From: Patescibacteria group bacterium
Lineage (GTDB): Bacteria > Patescibacteriota > Patescibacteriia > JAXHNJ01
Length of the DNA: 64,000 nucleotides
Assembly: GCA_034520665.1 (NCBI GenBank)
Contig: JAXHNJ010000002.1
Location: forward strand, 62,230-126,229
Direction of reading: 5' to 3'
The notes below the pieces were generated by a model. The model saw only the letters and a list, made by a program, of their open reading frames with translations. It ran no database searches and was not told the DNA's origin. Position 1 is the first letter of the stretch. Each line of letters opens with the position of its first letter. Positions 1-45,012 of the stretch are shown in pieces. Position numbers and translations under genes: made by a program.

Positions 1-607
1 CTATTAAATTCTTCTGATAGTGTAATAATTTTAAAAAATAAGTAAAATTAATAATTATTTTAAAAAATAAATATAAATCTAATTCTTTTATAAAAATTAC
101 TATAGAATTCTTAACTTTACAGGGAATAGTTAAAAAAATAATGCCGTCAGTAACTATATTTTTTTTCATTTTTTCCAATGTAAAAATAGGCCTGTCAAGC
201 GCCCATAATGTATTAAAACACAAAATTAAATCAATATTATTAATATTGGGGAAATTATTATTTAAATTAATATTAAGTGTTTCTATTTTCAAAAAAACAC
301 TATTTTTCCGATAATTATCCTTTAAAGATTCGTTACTATTATCAACAGCATAGACATATAATTTTGATAAATCAAAATTATTATTTTTTAAATTTATTAT
401 GATTTTATTTAATAGTGAACCATTTCCAGAGCCCAAATCCATAATTTTTATTTTCTTCTTTTTAATTCCACTAATTACATTGGTTGCTTCATTTATAACC
501 TCATTAATATATAATTTATACTTACCGTGATTGTAAAATAACTTCTCTTGATACTTTAGATAAGAATACCAATTATCAATTTTATGGGGTTGTGTTTTTT
601 TAAACAT
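1..607 (-). CDS. Class I SAM-dependent methyltransferase, 3'-truncated by window edge
   Basis: My own translation of the minus strand gives MFKKTQPHKIDNWYSYLKYQEKLFYNHGKYKLYINEVINEATNVISGIKKKKIKIMDLGSGNGSL..., with a glycine-rich SAM-binding motif I (DLGSGNG). ATG at 607..605 overlaps the stop of the upstream ORF by 8 nt. The ORF runs off the window start, so it is absent from the ORF track. Confidence 0.5.
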   Translation of the reverse strand, partial: MFKKTQPHKIDNWYSYLKYQEKLFYNHGKYKLYINEVINEATNVISGIKKKKIKIMDLGSGNGSLLNKIIINLKNNNFDLSKLYVYAVDNSNESLKDNYRKNSVFLKIETLNINLNNNFPNINNIDLILCFNTLWALDRPIFTLEKMKKNIVTDGIIFLTIPCKVKNSIVIFIKELDLYLFFKIIINFTYFLKLLHYQKNLI

Positions 608-2123
608 ATTGTAACTTAATAGATTTTTTATTTAATCTTTTTCTATCCATATTCTTAACACAAACCGGATAATAGTCTGCTTTTTTTGAGGCATCAGCAA
701 ATTCTTTGTTTTTATTTTTTAAAACATCAAAAATTGTATTTGCAATTAATAAATTAAGCTTATCCTCTTTTACAACACTACCTAAATTATCTTTTAAATC
801 TATTTCTATTGTAAGTACAGGAGACATCTTATCATTTTTTGAAATATACATAAAAAATACGTTATTGTGTAAATCAGCAATTCTTTTATCTAACAATGCA
901 GACTTAATATTCTCTGTATAAACATTTGCTCCTCTAAAAAAAACAGTGCCGTCACTTCTACCAGCAATATAAATAAAAGGAAGTCTACATAATAATTGGG
1001 TATTTTTCGGCAACTTATTCAAATATTCATTAATATTAAACCCGTAATTATCGAGTAAATTAAACATCTTATCAAAACTTATTACTCCTCCCAAATCATG
1101 AATATTATACCTGATAAGAGGAGAAATGGAACTTGTTGTGGCGATAATCTCATTATTAATTTCCTCAACAAAGAAAAAAAGCGGATTATATTGCAATAGC
1201 ATAGGTCCTGCGTTTTTTAAATTCCCAAAAATATCTTTTGCCAATTTGCCATCTTCCATGCACATTCTTCTTATTTTTATTGATAAAAATGTTTCAGAAG
1301 CAGTCCCCGTCCCAAGTTCTGTTACCCCATAGTTAGAAAATATTTTGGGTATGTTAAAATTCTCTAAATTTATTCCTAGTTTTGAAGCAATATAGTCGCG
1401 CCAATTTTCCGGGAATCCCTCACCCCCAACAACTAAGGAAATAGGCACGCAATTATGAAATCCATTGCTATTTATTTTATCAGCCAAATCTTTAATATAT
1501 GGTGGATAACCAGAAATAATTATATGGTCAAATATTTTCTTAAAATTACTTATCACATCTAATGTAATTTCTATATCTGGCCCGGGATTTATTACAGTTA
1601 ATTTATATTTATCCGAGTAAGCAATTTCACGCATCAATCTTGATAATCTTTCACCACTTGGCCATATTCCATAGGCAAAACAATTAATAAATAATGTTTT
1701 GTGTTTTTTTAATTCGGCCAAATTTAATAATGCAAATTCAAATTGTGATCTAGTCCGATAATCTTCTTCTGGTAATCTAAACCAGTAAGTTGGCTTACCG
1801 GAAAATCCTGAGGTACCCTCGATAGAATGAGATTCACTTATTCTTGGATTAATTGATCTATCAACTAAAGAATATTTATTAATATAATTATGTTTATCTA
1901 TAATTGGTAATTTTTTAAATTCTTGGAAACTGTTTATAGAATATTTTAAATAATCATTTTTTTTTAAAAAGGATCTATAAGCTTTTACATTTTTTATTGC
2001 ATAATTAGCAATCCTAATCGCCCTATTTTCCGATCTTTTATTTATATTTGAAGTTGAAAGAAATTTAATAAATAGATTGCTTACAAGGGGTAAATTATTC
2101 AATTTTGCTATTATGCTCATCAT
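600..2123 (-). CDS. Adenylate-forming enzyme, phenylacetate-CoA ligase (PaaK)/CapK/F390-synthetase-like
   Basis: 507 aa. P-loop-like motif TSGFSGKPTYW near residue 100, as in PaaK-type ANL enzymes. Followed by a hinge and C-terminal domain. Translationally coupled to neighbours (4-nt gap upstream, 8-nt overlap downstream). Confidence 0.55.
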   Translation of the reverse strand: MMSIIAKLNNLPLVSNLFIKFLSTSNINKRSENRAIRIANYAIKNVKAYRSFLKKNDYLKYSINSFQEFKKLPIIDKHNYINKYSLVDRSINPRISESHSIEGTSGFSGKPTYWFRLPEEDYRTRSQFEFALLNLAELKKHKTLFINCFAYGIWPSGERLSRLMREIAYSDKYKLTVINPGPDIEITLDVISNFKKIFDHIIISGYPPYIKDLADKINSNGFHNCVPISLVVGGEGFPENWRDYIASKLGINLENFNIPKIFSNYGVTELGTGTASETFLSIKIRRMCMEDGKLAKDIFGNLKNAGPMLLQYNPLFFFVEEINNEIIATTSSISPLIRYNIHDLGGVISFDKMFNLLDNYGFNINEYLNKLPKNTQLLCRLPFIYIAGRSDGTVFFRGANVYTENIKSALLDKRIADLHNNVFFMYISKNDKMSPVLTIEIDLKDNLGSVVKEDKLNLLIANTIFDVLKNKNKEFADASKKADYYPVCVKNMDRKRLNKKSIKLQYV

Positions 2124-2127
2124 AACA

Positions 2128-2826
2128 TTATATTTTTATCTCTGGAGTTTTTTTTGTCAAATATTTCGAAAAAGCAGGATTCATTTTATTCATATTCTCC
2201 GCCGCTTTATTAATATTTAAACACATAGTAAAAGAGGGGCATTGATGATTAATCTTGCTATAAAAATAAGGACCACTAACTTTTTTAAAACCGAATATAA
2301 GATAACGATCAGTAAAAAGGGTGGATACTGAGATACAAAAATTATTTATTCCGCATTTTTTTGCATAAAGCATAGCCCCCTTAACCAAACCAAAATAAAT
2401 TCTGATATTTTTTCTATAAGTTTTAGATATAATAAATCTACTTAATTCTGCAATATTTTTATTATATTTTCTATATTCTTTCAATGAATAATAACTTTCC
2501 GAAGGAAGTTCTGGATTATATAAATCATTTGGCACAATTCTCATCATACCTATTATTATATTATTTCTATCAATAGCAATAATACTCGCAGTTCCACTTC
2601 GTTTATCAAATTCATCAATTTCTTGTTTTTCTGAATAGTTCTCAGGATTTAAATACCCTTTTTCTAGGCAATAAACTTCGTAACGCAATCTATAAGTTTT
2701 TTTTAATTCATCATCACTACTTGCAATTCTAAACTCTATTATTTCAGTAGAGTTGGATTGAAAAATATACTTAAATAATAAAATCCATTTTATGAAAATT
2801 GCCTTTAGTTTTTTTCTAAAATTCAT
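2128..2826 (-). CDS. GNAT-fold N-acyltransferase, N-acyl amino acid synthase / PEP-CTERM-associated acyltransferase / LuxI-like family (paralog A)
   Basis: 232 aa. Motif YRLRYEVYCLEKGYL followed by a SRF/ELSR-type segment, typical of the Acetyltransf_5 / autoinducer-synthase-like GNATs. Two paralogs lie at 5964..6671 and 9157..9849. Confidence 0.5.
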   Translation of the reverse strand: MNFRKKLKAIFIKWILLFKYIFQSNSTEIIEFRIASSDDELKKTYRLRYEVYCLEKGYLNPENYSEKQEIDEFDKRSGTASIIAIDRNNIIIGMMRIVPNDLYNPELPSESYYSLKEYRKYNKNIAELSRFIISKTYRKNIRIYFGLVKGAMLYAKKCGINNFCISVSTLFTDRYLIFGFKKVSGPYFYSKINHQCPSFTMCLNINKAAENMNKMNPAFSKYLTKKTPEIKI

Positions 2827-2861
2827 TTATTTACTATAAATATTTTACTCACTTCCGACAC

Positions 2862-2895
2862 CTTTCAATTATACCACTATACCACCAAAATCAAA
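2862..2895 (-). promoter_or_regulatory. Sigma-70-like promoter for GNAT-A operon (-35 TTGATT, 15-nt spacer, extended -10 TGgTATAAT)
   Basis: Minus-strand sense tttTTGATTttggtggtatagTGgTATAATtgaaagg lies about 40 nt upstream of the GNAT ATG. The TATAAT box is conserved in all three repeat copies. Confidence 0.4.
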
Positions 2896-3100
2896 AAAAC
2901 TCCAATTTCTCTGGAAGCTAAAAAAGCCCTAATCTAAAAGACTAAAGCCGGTTAATTTAAATTAATTCGTGAAAATAAATTAGTGGTAAAGTCCTGCACC
3001 TGCTGGTACAGCCGGGCGTTTTCTAAAGCTACCGCGGCTTGATTAGAAAGTGTAGAAAGTAGCTCAATATCTTCTTTGGTGTAAGCATCTTTAGAAATTT
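2880..3100 (-). repeat. Conserved ~220 bp element, copy A: 3' end of 7TM-GAF gene + terminator + GNAT promoter
   Basis: About 85-90% nucleotide identity to 6720..6945 and 9890..10105, while the flanking coding sequences are only distantly related at protein level. Confidence 0.7.
2893..2918 (-). terminator. Possible intrinsic terminator of the 7TM-GAF gene (imperfect hairpin GCTTCCAG-agaaa-TTGGAG followed by T7)
   Basis: Hairpin plus a 7-T run immediately 3' of the GAF-gene stop. Conserved in the three repeat copies. The stem is imperfect. Confidence 0.3.
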
Positions 3101-4400
3101 TATGACCTAAGATGAAAAGACCGTTGATTTGATCCTTAACCACAAAAGGTAGAACTATGGATACACCCATTTTTTTTAAAACTTGGGCCTGAGCTAAAAG
3201 CTCCTGGTTTTCTTTTTGCTTTGATCTGGATAATATTTCACCAATCACGACCGGTTTTTTAGTTTCCTCTAAATAGCGACAGAAATGCTGATAAGCACAG
3301 ACCTCTTCCAATTTATTCTTATCAAAACCAAGAATTTTATACAAAGAAAAAGGTTTTTGGCTGTTTCGGTTAGCAATGGCTACGGCTAGATTATCTAGGC
3401 GCATGGCATTTTGAATGGTTTTAATCACAACCTTAACCACCTCATCCAAATTAATAGTTTTAGAAATATTTTTTCCAAATTTTTCTAGAACTTCTTGATA
3501 ATCATAAAGACCAGAAAAGAAGTATTTATTGGCAAATCTTTTTAAAAATTTACTTAAATAATTAAAGCTTAGGAGAAATAAGGGAACAATAATAAGAGCC
3601 GAGAGATAAGAGCCTAAGGCAAAAGGACTTTTGAAGAAAAAATTATCAAACCAAAGAACAAAATAATAAGCGGAAAAAATAAAAAGAGCTAGTCCGACAT
3701 AAATAAATGATTTACGGAGAACAAAGCGGATGTCCATAAGACGGTGCTTAATAATGGAGTATGAAGTAACCCCAATAAAAATTAACATAAATAATGGCGC
3801 ATAAACACTAAAATTAATAATTCCAAACAAAGGTAATATCGCATTAGTTATAATACTAAGAAATGCCGAAATTGATATTCCCCAAAATAAATATTTTATT
3901 TGTTCCCTGAATATACCGCTACTGTTTCTAAACTTTATTAATAGATTTTTAAGAGACAGTCCTACATATATTAAAAAATACGCAATAAAAAAATAATACA
4001 TCACGCCTGGAATAGTTTCAGCACCCCAATCATGAATAATGGTTTCTTTAATATTTAATCTTGTCGGAGTTAATATTATAAAAATAAAAACTGGAATTGC
4101 TAAAATAATAAAATCTTTTTTTGTATATTTTCTTGTTAAATATGGAAAATAATTAGTAAATATCAATAGCAGATAAACTATAAAAATTGGACCAATAATG
4201 GTTAATTTTCCAAAAAATGTTGCAATATCAATATTTTTCGTAGTATCAGCAATAAGCAAAGTAGCTATCCATAAAGAAAGACTAAAAACTAATAATGAGA
4301 ATAATACATTAATAGGATTATTAGATTTTTTCTTATAAATAATAAAACCCAATATAATTGAAATTATTAAACTCGGTAGATATGTAATATATTTTATCAT
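2952..4400 (-). CDS. Polytopic membrane sensor: N-terminal multi-TM (histidine-kinase-type 7TM-like) domain + C-terminal GAF domain, no kinase/output domain
   Basis: 482 aa. About 8 hydrophobic helices in the first 300 aa. C-terminal GAF-like block (LAVAIANRN...LPFVVKDQINGLFILGHK...LSNQAAVALENARLYQQ). Ends without a HisKA/HATPase domain. Confidence 0.5.
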   Translation of the reverse strand: MIKYITYLPSLIISIILGFIIYKKKSNNPINVLFSLLVFSLSLWIATLLIADTTKNIDIATFFGKLTIIGPIFIVYLLLIFTNYFPYLTRKYTKKDFIILAIPVFIFIILTPTRLNIKETIIHDWGAETIPGVMYYFFIAYFLIYVGLSLKNLLIKFRNSSGIFREQIKYLFWGISISAFLSIITNAILPLFGIINFSVYAPLFMLIFIGVTSYSIIKHRLMDIRFVLRKSFIYVGLALFIFSAYYFVLWFDNFFFKSPFALGSYLSALIIVPLFLLSFNYLSKFLKRFANKYFFSGLYDYQEVLEKFGKNISKTINLDEVVKVVIKTIQNAMRLDNLAVAIANRNSQKPFSLYKILGFDKNKLEEVCAYQHFCRYLEETKKPVVIGEILSRSKQKENQELLAQAQVLKKMGVSIVLPFVVKDQINGLFILGHKISKDAYTKEDIELLSTLSNQAAVALENARLYQQVQDFTTNLFSRINLN

Positions 4401-4404
4401 TAGT

Positions 4405-5103
4405 TTAATCCTTTATAGCTATTAACATAATATTTTGACCCGCATAAACAATCTGACTATTAATTACCCTAAAATTATTTTTACTAAATAAACTTATATA
4501 ATCTTTAACGGAAAAAAAATTATAAAATCCCCCTTTTGCTTTTCTATCTATAATTTTATTAAAATACAGCAATATAATATATATTTTTATATTTTTTATA
4601 ATAAAGAATAACCCCCGAAAAAAACCATAATTTTTAAAAAATAACCGACAATCATTCTTAAATATTTTAATATTTTTGAATGATTTAAGTGGATCAGTCA
4701 CCACGATAATACCTCCTTTTTTAATTATTCTATAAAATTCTTTTACAATTAAATGTAAATGCTTTTTTTTAAAAACATACAATGTATTTATGCAGATAAT
4801 TCTATCAAATAAATTATTAGGAAAAAGTAATTTATTGCCTAGGTCTGCATGATATAATTTTGCATTTTTATGTTTTTCATTCAATAACTTCAGGGCTTTT
4901 TTTGAATTATCAATACTATGTACTTCATGGCCCATATCAAGAAGTTTTTTTGAGATTTGACCAGGTCCACATCCAGCATCAAGTATTATGTCTGAATTTC
5001 TGAGTTTTAAATTTTTAACTACTAAATTTAATAATTCATTATACGAGGGAGATAATTCCACAAACTTATTGTATGCCTTGTGATATTTATTCCAGAATTT
5101 CAT
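4405..5103 (-). CDS. Class I SAM-dependent methyltransferase
   Basis: 232 aa. Motif I ILDAGCGPGQ, acidic motif II SIDNS, motif post-I. A 4-nt gap to the downstream 7TM-GAF gene. Confidence 0.6.
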   Translation of the reverse strand: MKFWNKYHKAYNKFVELSPSYNELLNLVVKNLKLRNSDIILDAGCGPGQISKKLLDMGHEVHSIDNSKKALKLLNEKHKNAKLYHADLGNKLLFPNNLFDRIICINTLYVFKKKHLHLIVKEFYRIIKKGGIIVVTDPLKSFKNIKIFKNDCRLFFKNYGFFRGLFFIIKNIKIYIILLYFNKIIDRKAKGGFYNFFSVKDYISLFSKNNFRVINSQIVYAGQNIMLIAIKD

Positions 5104-5177
5104 TATTTTAAAAAATTAAAACTCAAAATTATTAGATTAAGAAGAACGGCGATTATTTGAAAAATTAAATGGCTCAT
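5103..5177 (-). CDS. Candidate 24-aa hydrophobic small ORF (MSHLIFQIIAVLLNLIILSFNFLK), translationally coupled
   Basis: ATG lies 8 nt after the ThiF-A stop. Its TAA overlaps the methyltransferase ATG as TAATG. It is below the ORF-track size cutoff and I found it by manual translation. Confidence 0.25.
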   Translation of the reverse strand: MSHLIFQIIAVLLNLIILSFNFLK

Positions 5178-5184
5178 TTCTTTA

Positions 5185-5952
5185 TTATTTAATAAATTCA
5201 GTTAAATCAATATGATTATATTTAGGGGGAATGTAATTTCTATCGCTAATTATTTTTATAATATTCGTAACTATAAGAGATGAGGTTAAATTTGAAGCAA
5301 CCGCAAGTTGAGGATTAAATTTATTTATCTTTTTAATTAGCTCACTACTTTTATTAATAATATATTCTGGCATTTTTATCATTCCATTTTTATATAAACT
5401 AACAATAAAATCTAATTCACTTTTGGGTTTATTATTTTTTAAAAAATCATCTAAAGGGCCTGTTTTTTTATTAATAGTAATGAGCAAGGCTCCAAATCCT
5501 AAATTCATAGGTATAAAAACAGTTTTATCTTCATCTATAGTTTTATCTATTAATTTATAAAAAATATCATTAAGGTCTAAAGTATTTATAATAAAATCAT
5601 AATTTTTTACTAAGCGTAAGTGATTTGCTTTAAATTCTTTTGAATATGCAGTTATATCAGACGAAGGATTTATTAATTTTATAATACATTCCAAGGATTT
5701 AGCTTTGTTTTTACTTAAAAAATCCAAATTAAATACTTGCCTGTTTAAATTTGAAATTGTAACATTGTCAAAATCAAACAAAGTAAATCTTGCAAATCCC
5801 GTCCTTGTTGCTAATAAGGCAATGTTTCCGCCAAGCCCACAACCAGCAAACATTAAACTTATACTTTTTATCTTTTCTTGCATATCAGAATCAATAAACA
5901 AACAATTTCTGCTAATCATTTCGTTGTAATTGTATTGATATTTGTTTAACAT
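5185..5952 (-). CDS. ThiF/MoeB/HesA-family E1-like adenylyltransferase (paralog A)
   Basis: 255 aa. Rossmann nucleotide motif FAGCGLGGN and the E1 signature ISNLNRQ. Only the adenylation domain is present (no rhodanese domain, no CxxC pairs). Its size resembles TcdA/MccB-core-like enzymes. Confidence 0.6.
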   Translation of the reverse strand: MLNKYQYNYNEMISRNCLFIDSDMQEKIKSISLMFAGCGLGGNIALLATRTGFARFTLFDFDNVTISNLNRQVFNLDFLSKNKAKSLECIIKLINPSSDITAYSKEFKANHLRLVKNYDFIINTLDLNDIFYKLIDKTIDEDKTVFIPMNLGFGALLITINKKTGPLDDFLKNNKPKSELDFIVSLYKNGMIKMPEYIINKSSELIKKINKFNPQLAVASNLTSSLIVTNIIKIISDRNYIPPKYNHIDLTEFIK

Positions 5953-5963
5953 CTTATATTTTT

Positions 5964-6671
5964 TTAAAACTCAAAATTATTTGATTTATAATTATAAAAA
6001 TAGAATAATAATCTATCTTTTTCTTTAACTTCGTCCGCTTTTTTTTTAATGTCAATAAAAAAGGGATAGTTGATGGCATTGAAGCAAAATTTGGGCTCAC
6101 CAATTAATTCAACTTCACCAACATAGTTATCAAGAGTTTTTAGAAACCATTTTTCCGCACAACCGAACCAGAATAAATAATCATTTTGCCTAGAAAAAAG
6201 ATAAATCGCTTTAAACATATCTAGCAAAAGCATTGTCTTCCTATAATCGGGGTGTATCATGAATCTTGATAATTCGGTTATTTTTTCTCGGGGAACATTT
6301 TTTAATCTTTTTACTAAATCAAATTCTTTTTCTGTGGGAAACCCAAGTGGCGAGTTCTTTATTATTCTTGAGGTACCAACAATGTTATTATAACGATCGA
6401 ACGCAATAATATGATCGGCGTATTTATCATATAAATCAGTTTCCTTTTTGTCGGGATACTCTTCTTTATTTAATAAGCCATCAACATTGCAATAAATATT
6501 ATATCTAAATTTATACACGCGCTCCATTAGTTCCTTGTTCTCTTCATCTCTAACAAAAATCAATTTGTATTGTTTATAAGGCCGCCTTAAATGAAACAAT
6601 AAATAAGCGCGCAGTAAAAATATTACTATGGGATTTTTGCTATTTTTTATTTTCTTTGCTGAAAAATTCAT
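5964..6671 (-). CDS. GNAT-fold N-acyltransferase, N-acyl amino acid synthase/LuxI-like (paralog B)
   Basis: 235 aa. Motif YKFRYNIYCNVDGLL and ELSRF. Distant paralog of 2128..2826 and 9157..9849. Confidence 0.5.
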   Translation of the reverse strand: MNFSAKKIKNSKNPIVIFLLRAYLLFHLRRPYKQYKLIFVRDEENKELMERVYKFRYNIYCNVDGLLNKEEYPDKKETDLYDKYADHIIAFDRYNNIVGTSRIIKNSPLGFPTEKEFDLVKRLKNVPREKITELSRFMIHPDYRKTMLLLDMFKAIYLFSRQNDYLFWFGCAEKWFLKTLDNYVGEVELIGEPKFCFNAINYPFFIDIKKKADEVKEKDRLLFYFYNYKSNNFEF

Positions 6672-6719
6672 TATATTACCCTTTGTTCAAATTCTTCTTT
6701 CTTTACCCTGCTTTAATTA

Positions 6720-6945
6720 TACCTAAAAAATTAAAAAAGCTCCAATTTCCCTGGAAGCCAAAAAAGCCCTAATCTAAAAGGTTAAAGCCGGTTGATTTAA
6801 ATTAATTCGTGAAAATAAATTAGTGGTAAAGTCCTGCACTTGCTGGTACAGCCGGGCGTTTTCTAAAGCAATAGAGGCTTGGTTGGTCAGAGAATTAAGA
6901 AGCTGTAGATCTTCTTTAGTTTAGGCATCTTTGGAAATCTTTTCA
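6720..6945 (-). repeat. Conserved ~220 bp element, copy B (GAF 3' end + terminator + promoter)
   Basis: Near-identical to 2880..3100. In this copy the GAF stop TAA is mutated to CAA and an upstream in-frame TAA is present. Confidence 0.7.
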
Positions 6946-8254
6946 CCTAAGACAATAATGCCGATCAATTTATTTTTAATAATCAAAGGCAGACACAAGG
7001 CCGCTTCAATTCTTTTCATATTAGCCTTTAATTTACCGATTTCCGACTTTTCACCCTGCCCATTACTTTTTAAAGACTCCAGTTTTTTGGTAAATAACTG
7101 GTTTTCTTTTTTCTAAAAGATAATTGGTGAGGAAATTATTTCTGACTAGAGAAATGCCGTTAGCTACGGAAAAGCCAATATTGCTCTTAACCTGGTAATT
7201 ATGGGTTTCTTGGTCAAATAATAAAACACCGGTTCGGTCCAGTTTCATGGTGTCTCTAATAGTTTTGACAATGGAAGTCAATGATTTGATCTAAATCAAT
7301 AGAATGAGTCAGTTTCTGGGCCAGTTTTTCCAGAGTAGCCTGGTAGTTGTAAATACTGGCAAAGAAGTATTTGTTGGCAATTCTTTCTAGGTAATTCTTT
7401 AAGGACTCAAAGAGGATTAAGCCGAGCAAAAGGACAATTGGGCCCCAAACACCCGGAGGAATGATTTCCTTGAAATAAGTCATTTCCAGCCAGTAAAGGC
7501 CGAGGGCGAGAAGGATAATTATAATAATGGTGGAAGCATAGATGGCAGTTCTTTTCACGACCAGGCGGATGTCCATGAGGCGGTGGCGGACGATGGCGTA
7601 GGAGGTGAAAACCACGAAAAAAATTATTGACTGAATACCTATATAACTAAATTCTTGAATATTAAATATAGGCAAAATAATGTTAGTTAAAATTGCAATA
7701 ACAGCAGAAATTAATATACCCAAGAAAACATATTTCATTTGCATTCTATGCAACCCTGAACTATTTTTATATTTTATTATTGCTTCGATAAAAGCATAAA
7801 TTATAAATAGAAGGAAATATATAATAAAAAATAAATAAAATGAACCGTAGATAAAATTTGTTCCCCATTCTTGAATATCTACATCTTTTACAATCAAGTT
7901 GGTGTACAGTAAAACTAATAATAATAATGGTACTATATAAATAAATAGTAACTTTTTTTTGGTAATTTCATTTTTATAAAAGGGGAATACGAGACTGAAA
8001 TGGAGTAATATTGCTGGTATTATTATTGGTCCTATAAAAACAATTTTACTTAAACTTAAAGCAATATTCTCATTTATTGCTCTATCTACTAAATAAGTGG
8101 AGAATATCCAAAATCCAATTACAAAAACTAAAAAACCAAAAATAATACTTTCTTTTTTGCCTTTAGATTCATAAAAAACATAAAAACAAAGCAAAAAATT
8201 GAGTAGTAAGATTATCAATGTAATTATTGAAGTAATATCAAATGAAAAATCCAT
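6790..8254 (-). pseudogene. Disrupted paralog of the 7TM-GAF sensor (fragmented into at least three frames)
   Basis: ORF 7256..8254 encodes the intact multi-TM N-terminal region and aligns with 2952..4400 (shared ...HRLMDIR...KYFF...Y.YQ motifs). GAF fragments appear in a different frame (7063..7281). The C-terminal ~50 codons are in a further frame with an internal TAA. Confidence 0.5.
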
Positions 8255-8262
8255 AATTAGTT

Positions 8263-9033
8263 TTATTTATTCGTATAAGCATCAAAAAATATTGGCACTG
8301 GCGCAAAATTAATTTTTACACCTTGAATAAGCTTAATTATTGCTGTTAAAGTAATCGAAGCCACAATATATGATCCAATACAAATTTGCGGATAATACCC
8401 TCTTTTTTTAATTTCTTGAAAAATACTATTAATATTTTTATTTTTTAAAAACGGAAGAGAATACTCTTCTAACGATTTAAATAATTTAATATAAAATTCA
8501 TGATCATTTTTAGGTATGTGATTGCCCCAAATTGATTCAGGCGATGCAGAATGTTTATTAAAAAGCAATAATAATCCTCGAAAACCCAAATTAAAGGGAC
8601 ATAATACAGTTTTATCATTTTTAATAAAATTCGAGATTACTGAAAAATAAATTTTATTAAGATCAACCGTGTTAACTACAAAATCATGTTTTTTTATTAA
8701 ACTTTTCAAAATTTTCTCATTAATATATTTATTTATTACCCTGATATTCGCATTAGAATTAATGTTTATTAAACGTTTTTTTAATCGCTTCGCTTTATTA
8801 TAATTTAAATCATCTAGAATATATGATTGTCTATTTAGATTTGAGATGTTAACTTCATCTCCGTCAGCAATTGTAATATTAGTGAATCCCATTCGAACCG
8901 CCACCTCTGAAATCACACTACCCAAACCACATCCAGCAAAAAGAATGCTAGTTTTTTTTATTTTTTTTTGTAAATTAGAGTCTATATAAATCCAATTTCT
9001 ACTTATAAACGTGTTATAATCAAAATTTTTCAT
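8263..9033 (-). CDS. ThiF/MoeB/HesA-family E1-like adenylyltransferase (paralog B)
   Basis: 256 aa. FAGCGLGS and VNISNLNRQ. About 30-35% identity by eye to 5185..5952. Confidence 0.6.
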   Translation of the reverse strand: MKNFDYNTFISRNWIYIDSNLQKKIKKTSILFAGCGLGSVISEVAVRMGFTNITIADGDEVNISNLNRQSYILDDLNYNKAKRLKKRLININSNANIRVINKYINEKILKSLIKKHDFVVNTVDLNKIYFSVISNFIKNDKTVLCPFNLGFRGLLLLFNKHSASPESIWGNHIPKNDHEFYIKLFKSLEEYSLPFLKNKNINSIFQEIKKRGYYPQICIGSYIVASITLTAIIKLIQGVKINFAPVPIFFDAYTNK

Positions 9034-9156
9034 TTTTTATATTATTGTTGGTTAATTCTTGTTTATCTATTGCATATACTACTCTAAATCCTTGATAAAA
9101 GAAAATGTAAACCTTCATGAATACAAAATATATTTATTCAAAAAAATTATTTATAA

Positions 9157-9849
9157 CTAGTGTATACTATAACTATTCCCTTCACCATTATACTTAATTA
9201 GCCCTTTTTTTAAGTACTTCCATAAGTTTATATTTTCATTTTTAAGGTTTTCTTCCATTTCTGAAATATCTAAAATAAAAGGCGTGGTAATCCCCTGATA
9301 TAATGTCGGCGGACCAATTTTTTTAAAAGGAAAACCAAGTTTAATTAATATGGGGTATAAATTATCATCCATAACGGCAAAAACGTGAGTAATATTCTTT
9401 TCTTTCACAAAAGTGTACATGCCTTTAATCAGGGCGAGAAGGAGAAAATGCTTCCGGTATTTTTTAGCGACAATCAGACGGGATATTTCAGCCAATTTGC
9501 TTCTGTTCTTTTGAAGGATATCAACTTCAATTTTCATGTTTTTCTCTATCGGAAATCCCATTTCTGAGTTTAAAATTAATCTGACCGTGGCGGCTAAATT
9601 TCTAGTTTGTTTTTCTCTTAGTATAAAATGAACTGATTTATCATCATAATTGTCTTTTTCTTTTTTCCCCGGATGTTTATCCTTGTCAATATAACTAAAT
9701 TCCTCGCAAAATACTTCGTAGCGAAGCTTAAAAATTTTTTCTAGTTCAGATTTAGAGTCAGTAGTGTAAAAAATAAACTTATCAGAAAAGCTTCTTTGGA
9801 ACTGCCAAAATTCATAAAATCTTCTTAACTTTTTTATTATTTTTATCAT
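9157..9849 (-). CDS. GNAT-fold N-acyltransferase, N-acyl amino acid synthase/LuxI-like (paralog C)
   Basis: 230 aa. Motif FKLRYEVFCEEFSY and EISRL. Confidence 0.5.
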   Translation of the reverse strand: MIKIIKKLRRFYEFWQFQRSFSDKFIFYTTDSKSELEKIFKLRYEVFCEEFSYIDKDKHPGKKEKDNYDDKSVHFILREKQTRNLAATVRLILNSEMGFPIEKNMKIEVDILQKNRSKLAEISRLIVAKKYRKHFLLLALIKGMYTFVKEKNITHVFAVMDDNLYPILIKLGFPFKKIGPPTLYQGITTPFILDISEMEENLKNENINLWKYLKKGLIKYNGEGNSYSIH

Positions 9850-9889
9850 TTTCTATAACTAGTGCTCACTTCCCTTCTTGTTTTCATTA

Positions 9890-10105
9890 TACCTAAAAAA
9901 TCAAAAAAGCTCTAATTTCTCTGGAAGCCAAAAAAGCCCTAATCTAAAAGGCTAAAGCCGGTTGATTTAAATTAATTCGTGAAAATAAATTAGTAGAAAA
10001 GTCCGGCACCTGCTGGTACAATCGGGTGTTTTCTAAAGCTACCGCCGCTTGATTAGAAAGTGTAGAAAGTAGCTCAATATCTTCTTTGGTGTAGGCGTCT
10101 TTTTT
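9890..10105 (-). repeat. Conserved ~220 bp element, copy C, including a ~135 bp remnant of a 7TM-GAF gene 3' end with no gene body
   Basis: Near-identical to 2880..3100 (closer to copy A than to copy B). Homology stops abruptly at about 10104, some 70 nt before the tRNA-Trp 3' end. Confidence 0.65.
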
Positions 10106-10177
10106 AAGGTTTTGGACCTCTCTTTACGTGAAAGGAGGGGTGGAGACCTACCCCTAATACTAAATATACAGGATTTT

Positions 10178-10252
10178 TGGCAGGGGCACTAGGATTCGAA
10201 CCTAGAATAAGGGTTTTGGAGACCCTTGTGATAGCCATTTCACTATGCCCCC
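10178..10252 (-). tRNA. tRNA-Trp (anticodon CCA)
   Basis: Hand-folded. Acceptor GGGGGCA/TGCCCCT (one G-U). D-arm GTGA-AATGGCTA-TCAC. Anticodon stem AGGGT/ACCCT with loop CTCCAAA. T-arm CTAGG-TTCGAAT-CCTAG. Encoded CCA. 75 nt. Confidence 0.8.
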
Positions 10253-10523
10253 AATAAAAATCCCGCTTATTGTTTTTATAAACCTATTCTTTTTATTAAA
10301 CCTTGATATGAAGAAACTAAATCTCTTTAACTTTTTTTTCCTCTCTTTAGATGCTTCTCTATTATCATAGGCTTCGTAATACTTAAGCTCCAATGGTCGT
10401 CTGTTTTTTGTTGAATACACATCTCCTCTGTAGTAGTCCATCAATCTATTTTTTAAATTTTCAGTTCTGCCAATATATAATCGTTCATCTTTTTTTGCTT
10501 CTTAAAAAATACACATAATACAT
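10202..10523 (-). pseudogene. GIY-YIG nuclease (YhbQ-like) with a -1/+1 frameshift in an A7 run; 3' end overlaps tRNA-Trp
   Basis: N-terminal MYYVYFLRSKK in one frame (ATG 10523..10521). The rest, DERLYIGRTENLKNRLMDYYRGDVYSTKNRRPLELKYYEAYDNREASKERKKKLK, is in the adjacent frame. The shift sits at the homopolymer 10489..10495. No stop occurs before the ORF runs into the tRNA. Confidence 0.5.
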
Positions 10524-10566
10524 AATATTTCTTTCGCACCATCAAAATCTGTCGTTTATATTTAAA

Positions 10567-10722
10567 CTACTTCACTTCCTTATGTAAAGTATGTTTACGG
10601 CACTTTTTACAATGCTTTTTAATGTTGAGCTTCTCTTTTATTTTCTTTTTATTCTTTTTTGAGTAGTAATTTATATTATTACACTCAGTGCATTTAAGTT
10701 TAATCAGATTGTCTTGGGACAT
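10567..10722 (-). CDS. rpmG: 50S ribosomal protein L33
   Basis: 51 aa (below the ORF-track cutoff). [51 protein letters not shown] has the L33 CxxC...Y.T.KN...CxxC..HT pattern. Confidence 0.7.
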
Positions 10723-10759
10723 AATTTTAAGTTAATTTAAGTTAGTTAGTTTAATTAAG

Positions 10760-11131
10760 TTAATTAAGGTTGTTCTGGCTTGATAAATAGTTAATATATT
10801 TATTCAATCCAATCAATAATCCTTCATAATCCTGATCAACTCTTGTAAATTTCTCTAAGTTCAAATATTTCAAGCCTTTAGCTACTCTTAAATGACTCCT
10901 TATTTCAAAAATTTCTCCTCTTGCTTGGTATAAAATTCTAATCTTATCCTTATAAAAATAACGTCCTTGACTTTCAGCAATATTAGCAATAACAGAATTA
11001 GAAGCTCTTTTCAATTGATTAATGAGGGCATATTTTTCAGTATCAGGAAAATTATTTGTTATTTGATAAATACAAAGAACTAATTTATATCCTTTCTGCC
11101 AAATATTTAATTTAAAGAACGCTTTTACCAT
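10760..11131 (-). CDS. Four-helix-bundle protein (23S rRNA intervening-sequence protein / Avd-like family)
   Basis: 123 aa. FKLNIWQKGYKLVLCIYQIT..FPDTEKYALINQLKRASNSVIANIAES.GRYFYKDKIRILYQARGEIFEI matches the conserved IVS-protein pattern (L.VWQKA..L...IY.....FP..E...L..Q..RAA.S...NIAEG..R....D). Confidence 0.6.
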   Translation of the reverse strand: MVKAFFKLNIWQKGYKLVLCIYQITNNFPDTEKYALINQLKRASNSVIANIAESQGRYFYKDKIRILYQARGEIFEIRSHLRVAKGLKYLNLEKFTRVDQDYEGLLIGLNKYINYLSSQNNLN

Positions 11132-11221
11132 AATTCATTTCTTTTCACGCCACCAAAATGTCTTTATTAATATATCGAAATTAACTAAATCAACTTAAGA
11201 AACCTTAACTAACTTAACTTA

Positions 11222-11347
11222 TGGAGCCGAGGAGAGGAATTGAACCCCCAACCTACTGTTTATCCCGAAGTTCTCGAAATTTTGCCATGGAGCCAGCGCC
11301 TCGGGCCCAGAACCGACGACCTACGGTTTACCCGCCTGCCGAACGCC
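11222..11347 (-). other. Two tandem tRNA 3'-end-like fragments (T-arm-like + acceptor 3' strand + TCCA), not foldable as complete tRNAs
   Basis: Each unit (66 and 60 nt) ends ...GGCTCCA like the neighbouring tRNA-Thr genes and contains a GGTTC-type T-loop-like segment. I could not find a matching 5' acceptor strand. Confidence 0.3.
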
Positions 11348-11423
11348 TGGAGCCGGAGGTGGGAGTCGAACCCACGACTTGCTGTTTACAAAACAGCTAC
11401 TCTGACCACTGAGTTACTCCGGC
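11348..11423 (-). tRNA. tRNA-Thr (anticodon TGT)
   Basis: Hand-folded. GCCGGAG/CTCCGGC acceptor. ACTC-AGTGGTCA-GAGT D-arm. GCTGT-TTTGTAA-ACAGC anticodon arm. GTGGG-TTCGACT-CCCAC T-arm. Encoded CCA. 76 nt. Confidence 0.8.
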
Positions 11424-11560
11424 GCCCGGCGACTGGCGGGCAGACAAAACAGTTGTGCCGATAGCCAGAGGCTATCGAACCTTCTCGATTCGCCAAGCGA
11501 ATCGGGACTCTAGCCAACTGAGCTACGCCGGCAAAAGACAGACTGTTTATCAGCTCAAAG
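11424..11560 (-). other. tRNA-like element with canonical 5' start (GCCGGCGTAGCTCAGTTGGCTAGAGT) but two inserted perfect 7-bp hairpins; no canonical cloverleaf
   Basis: It starts like an Ile/Ala-type tRNA. It is then followed by GATTCGC-ttg-GCGAATC and GATAGCC-tctg-GCTATC hairpins and no matching acceptor 3' strand. Confidence 0.3.
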
Positions 11561-11646
11561 TGGTGGGCCGAGTAGGATTCGAACCTACGAAGCCCGAAGG
11601 CGCCAGATTTACAGTCTGGTGCATTTGACCACTCTGCCACCGACCC
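11561..11646 (-). tRNA. tRNA-Tyr (anticodon GTA), type II with long variable arm
   Basis: Hand-folded. GGGTCGG/TCGGCCC acceptor (two G-U). CCAGA-CTGTAAA-TCTGG anticodon arm. Variable hairpin GCC-ttcg-GGC. GTAGG-TTCGAAT-CCTAC T-arm. ACCA end. 86 nt. Confidence 0.8.
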
Positions 11647-11663
11647 ATTACTTTGAGCTGATT

Positions 11664-11915
11664 TTATTTTAAGATACTATTTAGATATTTTCGGCCTTGG
11701 CCAGATTTTAAAAACTTTTCTCTCTTCATTGCCTCTGACCTAGTTTTAAAAATTTCATGATATATTAATTTCCAAGGTTTTCTTCCTTTAGTATACGGGC
11801 ATTTTCCTTGATTATGTTTTTTAATTCTATTATTCAAATTTACAGTTTGACCCGTTTGACCACTTCGGTATCCACCCACTATTGCTTGCCATCTTTTATT
11901 TTTTTTATAATGCAT
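11664..11915 (-). CDS. GIY-YIG nuclease (YhbQ-like)
   Basis: ORF 11664..11969; the likely start is the internal Met (MHYKKNKRWQAIVGGY...). GQTVNLNNRIKKHNQGKCPYTKGRKPWKLIYHEIFKTRSEAMKREKFLK is the conserved GIY-YIG C-terminal pattern. The extreme N-terminal 18 codons of the track ORF read through a duplicated tRNA-Tyr fragment. Confidence 0.55.
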   Translation of the reverse strand: MHYKKNKRWQAIVGGYRSGQTGQTVNLNNRIKKHNQGKCPYTKGRKPWKLIYHEIFKTRSEAMKREKFLKSGQGRKYLNSILK

Positions 11916-11947
11916 TTGCCTGCCCGCCAAAACGGAAGTGAAGGCGG

Positions 11948-11995
11948 GACCACTCTGCCACCGACCCATTACTTTGAGCCGATTTTATTTAAGTG
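11948..11995 (-). repeat. Duplicate of the tRNA-Tyr 5' end plus ~25 nt of its upstream flank
   Basis: ggaccactctgccaccgacccattactttgagc(c/t)gattttatttaag also occurs at 11620..11668. Together the two copies bracket the GIY-YIG gene. Confidence 0.7.
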
Positions 11996-12140
11996 CTAGC
12001 CCACGCGCAGACTTGTCACCCTACGGGTGATCCTCCAAAGGAGGAAACCGCTAATTCTTTGAAAAAGACACAAAATAAGTTCTACTCCTTACCCCCGACA
12101 TTCGTCGGGGCAAGCATGAAGTTGCTCTACCCGCTACCTC
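11990..12140 (-). pseudogene. Degenerate tRNA-Thr(GGT)-like copy with a 22-nt insertion in the anticodon loop, truncated D-arm and no T-arm
   Basis: GGGTAGAGCAACTTCATG[CTTGCCCCGACGAATGTCGGGG]GTAAGGAGTAG equals the intact neighbour (...GGTAGAGCAACTCCATGGTAAGGAGTAG) once the bracketed 22 nt are removed. The downstream sequence forms unrelated hairpins. Confidence 0.35.
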
Positions 12141-12216
12141 TGGAGCCCACCGTCGGATTTGAACCGACGACCTACTCCTTACCATGGAGTTGCTCTACCA
12201 ACTGAGCTAGGTGGGC
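12141..12216 (-). tRNA. tRNA-Thr (anticodon GGT)
   Basis: Hand-folded. GCCCACC/GGTGGGC acceptor. GCTC-AGTTGGTA-GAGC D-arm. ACTCC-ATGGTAA-GGAGT anticodon arm. GTCGG-TTCAAAT-CCGAC T-arm. Encoded CCA. 76 nt. Confidence 0.8.
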
Positions 12217-12480
12217 AAAAGAGGTAGTGGGGCCAACTGCTCGCCCCGAGCATTGACGAGGGGAGCTACGTGGGCCTAAGCTGAGGTTTAGGTGGGTCTA
12301 CCAACTGCCCGCTCGTCATAATTTGCGCTCAAGCGCTAGCGAACGAGAGTTACGTGGGCCTAGCCAAACAGCTGAGGGTTTACTGGATTTTTAATTACAG
12401 TTGCGATATTTATCCTCCGAATCCTGAAGGGCCAAGGAGGACCAACTGAGCTAAGACTGCTCGGGCGATGGCAGGCAAGA
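12217..12480 (-). other. Three further tRNA 5'-fragment-like units (GGCCCACGTAGCTC...AGTTGG / TAGCTCAGTTGG...) with stem-loop insertions in the D-loop; GC-rich
   Basis: Units at about 12217..12276, 12277..12360 and 12361..12480 begin like tRNA-Thr/Ile but carry inserted hairpins and lack anticodon and T arms. I found no RNase P (P4) or tmRNA signatures. Confidence 0.3.
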
Positions 12481-12507
12481 ACTACCTAGAATTATTTTTT
12501 TAAATAA

Positions 12508-13401
12508 CTACATATTATTAACTTCTTTTTCTAATTCGTCAAGTTTTTCATTTTCCGGATTAACCTGTTTTAATTTATCAAAAGTACGTACGGCCAAACT
12601 TTTATTCCTTGCTTCAATACTTAATTCCAATAAAGCACTGACATATTTAGGATTATTTGGTTCTAAGTTCAAAGCATCCTGATAAGATTTTATAGCTTTT
12701 TGTATATCATCACAGGCTGTATAAATTTTAGCTAGATTAGCGTGATAAGTAGCAATTTTACTGTTAATATTTATTGATTTAATAAGATCCTGTTTTGCTT
12801 CATCTAAATTACCCAATGAACTGGCAATAACCCCTAAATTTTCATAAGCCTTGTCATCCTGAGCATTAAGTTTAATCAAAAAGGAAAATATTTCCCTAGC
12901 GTGTTCATAATCTTTTTTAGCTAGATAAACTTCTCCTAATAAATGATAAGCGGAAATATTCTTTTGGTCAAGACTAATTATATTTATACAAATCTCTTCA
13001 GCTTCATTTAAATCTCCGGATTTTTTAAGCTCTTCGGCCGTTCTTAACTTATCTTCCATTTCTTTATTTATCTTTTTCTTTGCTTCAATAGTCTTTGGTT
13101 TTATTTTTTTCTTTTCCCGATATTTTTTTTCAAGCTCCAATAATTGGTAATACCATTTTTTTATTTTATTTTTAACTTCATCATAATAAGGATAAGTTTT
13201 TTGCTTAAATATAAACGCCATATTTACAATTTTTCTTTTTAAACGGCCTTCCAATATTTCTTTTTTAACCTGAGCTTCTTTTTCTTCCGGTATTTTTTTA
13301 GTATCAATCATGCTCAAAACCTGAATTTTTTTCAGAACTAAAAGTATTATCAGGACTAAAGAAAGAATGGCTATGATTAAGGCAATTATATTAAAAATCA
13401 T
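12508..13401 (-). CDS. Membrane-anchored tetratricopeptide-repeat (TPR) protein
   Basis: 297 aa. N-terminal TM helix, a charged coiled-coil segment, then TPR-like repeats (AY..LG..Y...DY..A...F, A..NLG......GN.DEA). Confidence 0.5.
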   Translation of the reverse strand: MIFNIIALIIAILSLVLIILLVLKKIQVLSMIDTKKIPEEKEAQVKKEILEGRLKRKIVNMAFIFKQKTYPYYDEVKNKIKKWYYQLLELEKKYREKKKIKPKTIEAKKKINKEMEDKLRTAEELKKSGDLNEAEEICINIISLDQKNISAYHLLGEVYLAKKDYEHAREIFSFLIKLNAQDDKAYENLGVIASSLGNLDEAKQDLIKSININSKIATYHANLAKIYTACDDIQKAIKSYQDALNLEPNNPKYVSALLELSIEARNKSLAVRTFDKLKQVNPENEKLDELEKEVNNM

Positions 13402-18113: not shown

Positions 18114-18935
18114 TTAGTAAGCGAAATTAACGCCTGAACGGACATACTCGTCACGCTGATCATAAGAAATGTAGATCGAGCTGTCAGGAGCGTATTTCCA
18201 GCTAAGTGTTACCATCCAGGTATTTTCAGTGTCTCCGAAATCATACAGACCGTACAATCTCAAACCCTTAGGAAAATCAATGTGGTTCTGGACAAAGAAG
18301 ACACTCTCCTTACCTGGAATATTTTCTTCGTAGCGAGTAAGACCAACAAAGGGATTAAACCAGTAATTGAAACTATGCTGCCAGGCGACTCCGTGAGCCG
18401 TATTCTGGACATAGAAACCAGTCAGTCCATAAAGACCCAGTGTCATCGTTGACCCACCGTTGTAGTGAGCAGCTTTTACACTCCAGTTGCCATGAGAGTA
18501 CCACAGGGCCGTACCAGCACAAGAAACTGGCAAGTCTGCCTTAGCGTCCGGCCAACGAGATAAGCGATTATGGCGCGGTCCCGGCCAGATGAGATTGACT
18601 GGACAAAGATACTGTCCAACGAGAAAATTGAACTGACCACCGCTGTAATTGCGATCGAATTGCACATACAAATACTTCAGACTTGACGTTGTGTAGTCAA
18701 ACTCGGTCCGAACCATAATCTTCTGTCCCAGGATATCGCTATACGGATAGAATTTTATGCCGATCCTTCCCCAAGCAAACCGGTAATCCTCGATTTTTTT
18801 GTCAGGCAAGTCGAGCCTGGCAAAGGTAGTAATCTTTAGATCATCAACTTGAAGATCATCGGCCACAGCCGAGACTAAGAAAAACAAGCAGATAAGAAAG
18901 AAAAATACTGCTATCGTCCAGATTGTCCTAAACAT
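18114..18935 (-). CDS. Secreted beta-rich protein, outer-membrane beta-barrel/porin-like, compositionally foreign (high GC)
   Basis: 273 aa. N-terminal signal peptide. Alternating aromatic/hydrophobic beta-strand pattern. C-terminal ...VNFAY. By eye GC is about 45% against about 30% for the window. Confidence 0.4.
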   Translation of the reverse strand: MFRTIWTIAVFFFLICLFFLVSAVADDLQVDDLKITTFARLDLPDKKIEDYRFAWGRIGIKFYPYSDILGQKIMVRTEFDYTTSSLKYLYVQFDRNYSGGQFNFLVGQYLCPVNLIWPGPRHNRLSRWPDAKADLPVSCAGTALWYSHGNWSVKAAHYNGGSTMTLGLYGLTGFYVQNTAHGVAWQHSFNYWFNPFVGLTRYEENIPGKESVFFVQNHIDFPKGLRLYGLYDFGDTENTWMVTLSWKYAPDSSIYISYDQRDEYVRSGVNFAY

Positions 18936-20352: not shown

Positions 20353-20379
20353 TTTTATTTTTGTTTTTAAAAAATACTA

Positions 20380-43901: not shown

Positions 43902-44034
43902 TTTTCCTCCTAATTTTATTTTAAATGAGCAATTTAAATTATTTTACAAAAATAAGCGAAATTGTCAAGGACTTTAAAAAAATAAGTAGCTCTACTTAAT
44001 TAGTAGAACTACTTCTTGATAATTTTATAAAATA

Positions 44035-44916: not shown

Positions 44917-45012
44917 GATATAAGGAACTTAACAGTATAAACTTACATTATAACAAAAATATGTCAAGTCTTATAAAAAACCCCCGTTTTTAATAAACAG
45001 GGGCTATAAATA

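Follow-up and report, generated by a model that had tools for sequence, protein, structure and literature searches.

What keeps a short DNA segment nearly constant when the genes on both sides of it have drifted far apart? The question is raised by a 64,000-nt stretch (hereafter the window) of contig JAXHNJ010000002.1 from a Patescibacteria group bacterium, in which an element of about 220 bp occurs three times beside genes for GNAT and ThiF proteins. An earlier note, made from the sequence without database searches, had described the three copies, had proposed gene conversion or strong selection as the cause, and had considered a cis-regulatory RNA or leader, or a site-specific junction for cassette shuffling, as the role. 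Our analysis indicates that the element is probably (we would put it at roughly 70%) an inter-cassette junction in a tandem array of putative signalling operons, homogenised by homologous recombination. The element itself is ordinary, consisting of a gene stump followed by a predicted terminator and promoter.

Three similar copies beside dissimilar genes

All genes in positions 1-10,300 of the window are on the minus strand, and so are the three copies of the element:

2868..3098, minus strand, J_A, junction copy A
6716..6938, minus strand, J_B, junction copy B, with an in-frame TAA in its GAF tail
9886..10114, minus strand, J_C, junction copy C, whose GAF tail is a start-less remnant beside tRNA-Trp

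In an ungapped register (positions 2887-3098 of copy A, offset by +3840 for B and +7010 for C), the 212 nt compared were identical at 184/212 positions between A and B (87%), 194/212 between A and C (92%) and 177/212 between B and C (84%), and a 153-nt core (3039-2887) was 92/92/90% identical among A, B and C. Sliding comparison of units A and B revealed 93-97% identity at 3030-2911; outside the element identity was about 40-60%, near the background for unrelated DNA at this GC content of 33%. Invariant cores of 30 nt and 21 nt each had exactly three matches in the window, versus 0.00 and 0.07, respectively, expected by chance. Beside the element, the paralogous GNAT proteins share 27-30% and the ThiF proteins 40% identity. 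The pairwise alignment thus places the element (84-92%) well above both its flanks (about 50%) and the adjacent coding regions, and the earlier description of near-identical copies between distantly related genes was accurate.

A kinase stump joined to unrelated DNA

The earlier note took the gene that runs into the element to be a GAF gene as such. It is a truncated histidine kinase gene, and the truncation breakpoint, which the note had missed, lies inside the element. Homologues of 7TM-GAF_A, the product of the intact open reading frame (ORF) that ends in copy A, are nearly all 7TM-GAF-HisKA-HATPase kinases of 715-760 aa; two of them used here for comparison, P0002 (a full-length kinase on the 698-kb contig that also holds the window) and P0004 (from a related metagenome contig), carry all four domains, i.e. 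the seven-transmembrane (7TM) sensor, GAF, HisKA and HATPase_c. The 7TM-GAF copies of the array are truncated kinase derivatives, not kinases. Homology to the full-length kinases stops at window position 2985|2984, after ...QDFT. At the nucleotide level, ...GACTTTACC|AAAACTCTT... of the full-length kinases gives way to ...GACTTT(A/T)C(C/T)|ACTAAT... in every junction copy; at the protein level, ...ENARLYQQVQDFT-KTLQ(Q/K)KVDEQTRD... in the full-length kinases is replaced by ...QDF(T/S)-TNLFSRINLN in the junction copies. The contrast holds against both P0002 and P0004. Past the breakpoint follow about 100 nt that are not derived from a kinase and code for a tail of 10-19 codons and a stop. The parts of copy A and their equivalents are as follows:

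2985..3098, minus strand, kinase-derived part, encoding ...KDAYTKEDIELLSTLSNQAAVALENARLYQQVQDFT; equivalents at 6825-6938 (B) and 9995-10108 (C)
2952..2984, minus strand, non-kinase tail TNLFSRINLN and TAA stop, with the 30-nt invariant core at 2955-2984
2919..2949, minus strand, hairpin 1 and a T6 run, terminator-like, 11 pairs of which many are G-U; equivalent hairpins, T-run not counted, at 6765-6789 and 9935-9959
2892..2918, minus strand, hairpin 2 (GCTTCCAG...TTGGAG) and a T6-7 run; equivalent hairpins, T-run not counted, at 6739-6758 and 9909-9928
2868..2881, minus strand, -10 region, with TATAGT (18 nt after TTGGAG) and a duplicated TGGTATAAT; TATAAT at 6716-6721 in B and 9886-9891 in C

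The element in copy A spans the last 48 codons of the GAF ORF, 38 of them kinase-derived. In B and C the TAA of copy A is CAA, and the frame continues via QPAL(T/A)F to stops at 6774-6776 and 9944-9946, respectively. It was also noticed, as a correction to the earlier note, that GAF_B has an in-frame TAA at about 6923 plus frameshifts and is therefore a pseudogene; the GAF of copy C, which lacks a start, is reduced to about 150-170 nt adjoining tRNA-Trp. A second correction concerns copy A, which holds an 8-nt duplication of the -10 region (GGTATAGT|GGTATAAT). The -10 box GGTATAAT ends 41, 44 and 36 nt before the start codons of GNAT_A, GNAT_B and GNAT_C, respectively, and similarity among the copies ends within about 3 nt past TATAAT. 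The layout given earlier (GAF tail, hairpin with T-run, promoter) was otherwise found as described, with two hairpins.

Both hairpins have the stem-loop and U-run of an intrinsic terminator; their stems are weak, and they are best regarded as predicted terminators. A terminator scan, which found 10 sites against 4.0 +/- 2.0 expected, flagged hairpin 1 in A and C, and hairpin 2 with its T6-7 run occurs in all copies, its 3' arm carrying a -35-like TTGGAG. In a second lineage, represented by two related metagenome contigs (L003 and L004), an A-tract, hairpin and U7 are found, so that both lineages retain two hairpins, a U-run and a TATAAT box despite differing sequences. The box is perfect in 5/5 copies and TGn-extended in A, L003 and L004. 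As for the non-kinase part, a decayed continuation of the kinase was considered and rejected, with best local scores only borderline in A, B and C and the match absent in L003 and L004; a protein search with a 62-aa tail returned no candidates.

The junction is alike within a lineage and unlike between lineages

A metagenome scan with the breakpoint pattern had L004 as its sole match. This 1.9-kb contig carries a B-type GAF, a variant of the junction (J') and a GNAT 93% identical to GNAT_C, whereas on the 5.9-kb L003 the tail of a B-type GAF and J' occur together with genes for a fourth GNAT type, a methyltransferase, the full kinase P0004 (with an A-type GAF) and response regulators. A form of the element is thus present in relatives, and since the breakpoint DF(T/S)|TN(I/L)FSRIN is common to both lineages, the truncation is older than the lineage split.

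Between the window and L004, the GAF (GAF_B, about 80-90% nucleotide identity) and the GNAT (GNAT_C, about 85-95%) have remained similar, whereas the junction middle is only 37-60% identical, with large indels; among A, B and C the same middle is 91-94% identical. Likewise, J' is nearly identical between L003 and L004, though their GNATs share only 28%. The junction being alike within a lineage and unlike between lineages, with the flanks (80-95%) showing the opposite, we conclude that the pattern reflects concerted evolution and not conservation by selection. Within the non-kinase part, conservation between the lineages is seen at the two ends, in ~30 nt directly behind the breakpoint and in the final ~45 nt (3' arm of the hairpin, T-run and TATAAT). 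Coding constraint does not account for the similarity either: with a pseudogene in B and only a remnant in C, the core is still 90-92% identical.

Partners on the two sides of the junction have also been recombined. A crossover between J_B and J_C would yield the order found in L004, B-type GAF - J' - C-type GNAT. Gene conversion or recombination is supported by three observations, namely that the copies within the genome are the closest to one another, that two of three coding tails are dead, and that left and right partners differ between genomes. Of the two causes named in the earlier note this one stands, and selection is kept only as a probable addition at the promoter and terminator. L003, in turn, fills the same backbone slot as unit B/A of the window, with 81% nucleotide identity in the left flank and 78% in the right; its 2.2-kb centre is unrelated at the nucleotide level to the 3.0-kb centre of the window, the proteins are 30-41% identical, ThiF is absent and the gene content differs.

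Unequal tracts and a mosaic of sensor domains

The shared tracts always end on the right at the -10 box, whereas their left ends vary. Counted back from the box, the tract is about 150 nt in B and about 212-240 nt in C; a fourth copy, D, known at the protein level only, shares at least ~640 nt with A at ~97% aa identity. Tracts of unequal length (~150, ~220 and at least 640 nt) and similarity that is free of coding constraint are both what concerted evolution leaves behind.

A domain mosaic was seen in four independent pairs of proteins, in which the 7TM parts are 24-32% identical and the linker and GAF are far more alike. The switch is always at KHR(L/F)(L/M)DIR, just past TM7. In the pair A-D, identity is 32% in the 7TM part and 90% in linker plus GAF; in P0005-P0010, from another genome (L002), 24% and 99%; and in A-P0004, 30% and 70%. 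The fourth pair is B and P0038 (MDZ7798145), a full-length kinase on a 455,760-nt contig of the same metagenome-assembled genome (MAG), with ~30% identity in the 7TM part, ~95% aa identity in the linker over the residues compared, and a GAF near-identical by eye.

In L002 (10001-15335) a 275-aa gene and a methyltransferase lie between the truncated 7TM-GAF P0010 and the full kinase P0005, and the truncation breakpoint differs (DIKEA|CLVY); here, in a different Patescibacteria genome, the same process has occurred independently. P0077 was considered as a further truncated copy and set aside, being a split kinase with 7TM-GAF and HisKA-HATPase in adjacent ORFs.

The backbone also differs in composition, its GC content at third codon positions (GC3) being 0.31-0.53 versus 0.15-0.20 in the cassettes (7TM and cassette genes), with a mean over the ORFs of the window of 0.263 +/- 0.063. 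In the linker of the GAF_B pseudogene (7256-7588, minus strand) GC3 is 0.53, more than 4 standard deviations above that mean. Either GC enrichment accompanying recombination or a different origin could produce such an excess, which is proof of neither.

Order of the array and a fourth unit

The array is bounded by a tRNA-Trp and contains the following genes within the window:

600..2123, minus strand, PaaK / F390-synthetase-like ligase of unit A/D (profile match)
2128..2826, minus strand, GNAT_A, FeeM / N-acyl-amino-acid-synthase-like (profile match)
2952..4400, minus strand, 7TM-GAF_A, intact 482-aa ORF with HisKA_7TM and GAF, without HisKA and HATPase_c
4405..5103, minus strand, class I S-adenosylmethionine (SAM) methyltransferase (MT) of unit B/A (profile match)
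5185..5952, minus strand, ThiF_B, E1-like adenylyltransferase (profile match)
5964..6671, minus strand, GNAT_B, FeeM-like (profile match)
6774..8254, minus strand, 7TM-GAF_B pseudogene, with frameshifts and a nonsense codon
8263..9033, minus strand, ThiF_C, ThiF-type E1-like adenylyltransferase (profile match)
9157..9849, minus strand, GNAT_C, above the TIGR03694 cut-off; 93% aa identity to the L004 orthologue and 98% to GNAT_D
10178..10252, minus strand, tRNA-Trp, bounding the array (tRNA search)

The gene order was taken from NCBI accessions MDZ7798489-8503 on the 698-kb contig of the MAG, 'Patescibacteria group bacterium'; transcription from tRNA-Trp runs through descending accessions, from MDZ7798503 to 8489. 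In that direction the units are:

first unit, next to tRNA-Trp: C stump - J_C - GNAT_C - ThiF_C
second unit: 7TM-GAF_B (pseudogene) - J_B - GNAT_B - ThiF_B - MT
third unit: 7TM-GAF_A - J_A - GNAT_A - ligase - MT
fourth unit: 7TM-GAF_D (P0003, ending ...TNLFSRINLNQPALAF) - J_D - GNAT_D - one gene - full-length kinase P0002

The fourth junction, with GAF_D, and the terminal kinase P0002 are placed just past window coordinate 1. Contig L008, from an independent Logan assembly, is 100% identical to window positions 1-2929 and adds 996 nt with an intact 7TM_D; it breaks inside J_A, as expected for assembly at a repeat. Inside a unit, neighbouring genes overlap or leave gaps of 4-123 nt; terminator-like hairpins and the conserved -10 box are found in the spacers formed by the junctions. 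Spacing and motifs together suggest a transcription unit that would run from the junction promoter through GNAT, the modifier genes and the sensor to the terminator of the next junction.

Copy C is best explained as a recent segmental duplicate of unit D, because GNAT_C has 98% identity to GNAT_D and the derived residues VPDF and NQPALAF are common to the C stump and GAF_D. The earlier note had recognised the remnant and had attributed it to recombination at the element; the remnant is real, and duplication of unit D accounts for it better.

Proposed origin and its weak points

An old rearrangement, most simply a tandem duplication, would have cut a 7TM-GAF-HisKA-HATPase gene right after ...ARLYQQVQDFT and fused the stump to ~100 nt of unrelated DNA supplying a short tail with a stop, two weak intrinsic terminators and a TATAAT promoter. 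At each junction the upstream operon would end in the terminators and the next would start from the promoter, each operon having a FeeM-like GNAT, then ThiF, methyltransferase or ligase, then a 7TM-GAF sensor. Junction and linker-GAF coding region would together form a repeated backbone, on which RecA-type homologous recombination (gene conversion and unequal crossing-over) would act and homogenise the copies within a genome. The junction may have spread to other kinase paralogues via the highly conserved ENARLYQQVQDFT coding block, and the variable cassettes between the backbones would be duplicated, lost and exchanged. In this account the anatomy, the breakpoint, the contrast of identities within and between genomes, the reshuffled partners and the domain mosaic are observed, and what is inferred is the activity of terminators and promoter, the grouping into operons, the mechanism of recombination and a role in signalling.

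Several points weigh against this explanation. The copies differ by 8-16%, so homogenisation was not very recent. All right-hand tract ends fall at the -10 box, which could also reflect a site-specific process, and selection on promoter and terminator probably adds to the similarity at those ends. The second lineage consists of two short contigs, and L003 and L004 may come from separate loci of a single genome or from the same locus in two strains; J_D, P0002 and P0038 are known as proteins only. As to the promoter, the -35-like TTGGAG, at 18-nt spacing, matches the consensus at only 3/6 positions, and a consensus promoter scan (60 sites versus 66.8 expected) is uninformative in such AT-rich DNA.

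Alternative explanations

Purifying selection alone, acting on a shared cis-regulatory DNA module (a response-regulator operator and promoter) that co-regulates the GNAT operons, would account for the position of every copy 36-44 nt before a GNAT start codon. It would also account for the conservation between lineages of TATAAT with ~45 nt upstream (AAATTGGAG.TTTTTT.ATTT..GGTATAAT) and of ACTAAT.T.TTTTCACGAAT. However, the ~50-70 nt of the junction middle cannot be aligned between lineages, though inside each lineage the copies agree there at 91-100%; a binding site under selection gives no reason for B and C to keep 114 nt of dead coding sequence conserved at every codon position, and the longer tract shared by A and D is left unexplained. 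We therefore consider selection as the sole cause unlikely.

Less probable still is a site-specific recombination site, integron-like or shufflon-like, at which a recombinase would cut at or near the -10 box and move GNAT cassettes. The sharp right boundary, which five copies from two lineages place no more than ~3 nt from TATAAT, would fit such a site, as would the different cassettes behind the same junction and the tRNA gene adjoining the array. However, no recombinase was found among the array genes or the ORFs scanned at 10.2-22.2 kb (tRNAs, GIY-YIG, IVP protein and housekeeping genes), and a search for inverted repeats turned up only the G-U hairpins and no imperfect palindrome of the attC kind. 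The left tract ends vary and the cassettes are paralogous operons with their own predicted promoter, which also argue against it. Cassette shuffling as proposed earlier is accordingly retained as homology-driven exchange and dropped as a site-specific junction. The junction was absent from the viral contigs scanned, and a search of 185,579 species-representative genomes (the source genome not among them) with a 20-nt junction core gave one chance match only, a 20-mer in a Helicobacteraceae MAG whose flanks were 19/60 identical.

There is little to recommend a structured RNA, either a small RNA derived from the 3' untranslated region of the GAF gene or a leader or riboswitch of the GNAT gene. 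The two hairpins have U-runs, and copy A folds better than shuffled sequences (z = -2.7), but z was +0.2 and -1.3 for B and C, and positions 1-13000 of the window gave no Rfam match at E <= 1 other than tRNAs and noise. In hairpin 1 the variable position disrupts a pair (U-A to C.A) with no compensation, and the conserved stretch reaches no further than the -10 box, short of where the GNAT transcript is predicted to start, the 5' untranslated regions not being conserved; the cis-regulatory RNA or leader suggested in the earlier note thus found no support. Finally, chimeric joining at a repeat during assembly, for which the MAG source and the break of an independent assembly inside J_A could be cited, is very improbable, since the copies differ at 8-16% of positions and are not collapsed or duplicated reads, L008 is identical over 1-2929, and related contigs from other samples share the architecture.

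Products of the cassette genes

The GNATs belong to the FeeM / N-acyl amino acid synthase family, and such an enzymatic role is predicted from their profile matches. GNAT_A, GNAT_B and GNAT_C scored 59.3, 40.0 and 59.2 with Pfam FeeM, versus a cut-off of 27; with TIGR03694 (cut-off 111.95), GNAT_C scored above (165.8) and GNAT_A (85.1) and GNAT_B (89.9) below. They also match autoinducer synthase, more weakly. The NCBIfam model PRK14852, a 989-aa 'hypothetical protein', is matched by the GNAT at 2128-2826 (model positions 30-205), and its positions 314-553 are matched by both ThiF proteins (5185-5952 and 8263-9033). A functional link between GNAT and ThiF is supported, because a GNAT-ThiF fusion protein exists elsewhere in the form of PRK14852.

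Microcin-C-like peptide adenylation, with ThiF, GNAT and methyltransferase, was also considered, and no consistent small precursor ORF was found, only one of 32 aa in the GNAT_C/ThiF_C gap. This ORF (MKVYIFFYQGFRVVYAIDKQELTNNNIKNEKF, 9020-9118, minus strand) lies in the 123-nt gap and overlaps the start of ThiF_C.

Other features of the window

Beyond the array, a tRNA cluster (Trp, Thr, Tyr, Thr) at 10178-12216 is interleaved with a GIY-YIG ORF (11664-11969) and a 23S-rRNA-IVP four-helix-bundle gene (10760-11131); a decayed GIY-YIG-like ORF (10202-10444) overlaps tRNA-Trp, and a 43-nt repeat (11627-11669 and 11948-11990) duplicates the end of tRNA-Tyr. Three tandem RpoD-like sigma-70 paralogues of ~280 aa at 43062-45870, minus strand (43062-43901, 44035-44868 and 45013-45870), account for repeat families D4 and D5, and two adjacent DUF3048 paralogues of 367 and 360 aa (19249-21462, minus strand) form repeat family D8. 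Two compositional outliers were noticed, a 273-aa ORF with 45% GC and no Pfam match (18114-18935, minus strand) and a PyrB-PyrI fusion (aspartate carbamoyltransferase catalytic and regulatory chains) with 48% GC (39061-40581, minus strand).

Comparison with known systems and implications

In mechanism the locus would correspond to concerted evolution of a repeated segment, and in architecture it would be closest to the polymorphic quorum-sensing loci. As in rRNA operons, tuf genes and tandem paralogue arrays, copies within the genome are closer than orthologues, and the similarity comes in mosaic, unequal tracts that do not depend on coding. It differs from concerted evolution of genes in that a chimeric junction is homogenised, between strongly diverged cassettes, with the right ends pinned at the -10 box.

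In ComP and AgrC the N-terminal sensor part is variable and the kinase part conserved. The resemblance to comQXPA and staphylococcal agr lies in hypervariable synthesis genes and sensor domain, a conserved cytoplasmic part, and conserved flanks that permit allele replacement by homologous recombination; L003 compared with the window likewise has a variable synthase and sensor between conserved flanks in one slot. The polymorphism of comQXP in the Bacillus subtilis comQXPA locus has been described (PMC4408185). Unlike those loci, several cassettes stand here in tandem in one genome, most of the sensors lack a kinase, and the presumed signal would come from a FeeM-like acyltransferase with ThiF, methyltransferase or ligase and would not be a peptide.

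A FeeM-like GNAT encoded with a kinase of several transmembrane segments and a GAF domain is also found in the PEP-CTERM/exosortase-associated setting, in the acyltransferase of TIGR03694 and PrsK, the 7TM-GAF kinase of PEP-CTERM context (PMC1569441). In contrast, no PEP-CTERM, exosortase or sigma-54 regulator context was seen here, 7TM-GAF_A matches PrsK weakly (51 versus a cut-off of 300), and GNAT_A and GNAT_B are below the TIGR03694 cut-off. Integron attC arrays also have a similar short repeat between successive cassettes, but here neither an integrase (array genes and ORFs at 10.2-22.2 kb) nor an attC palindrome was found, the cassettes are paralogous operons with their own predicted promoter, and the repeat holds a gene stump.

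A further step, which we take with considerable doubt, would be to regard the array as an in-genome library of signalling specificities, each cassette pairing a synthase with its cognate 7TM sensor and the last sensor alone being fused to a kinase. Recombination at the backbone would then delete, duplicate or import cassettes and so rewire which pair is connected to the kinase, which would give ultra-small episymbiotic bacteria a means of switching or collecting pherotypes. Sensors without a kinase may additionally serve as decoys or form heterodimers.

For annotation, the locus is a warning that 'GAF domain proteins' of this sort are truncated kinases made by recombination. The element points to a modular, recombining locus in which conserved backbones alternate with blocks where the synthase genes vary together with the membrane sensor domain of a histidine kinase, and one Patescibacteria genome of ~1 Mb has several of these blocks in a row. 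If it is true that the cassettes encode signal/receptor pairs, the array would be evidence for diversified cell-cell signalling in bacteria of the candidate phyla radiation (CPR), and would offer a clear case from nature in which sensor domains are swapped at one fixed boundary, the KHR(L/F)(L/M)DIR motif just past TM7.

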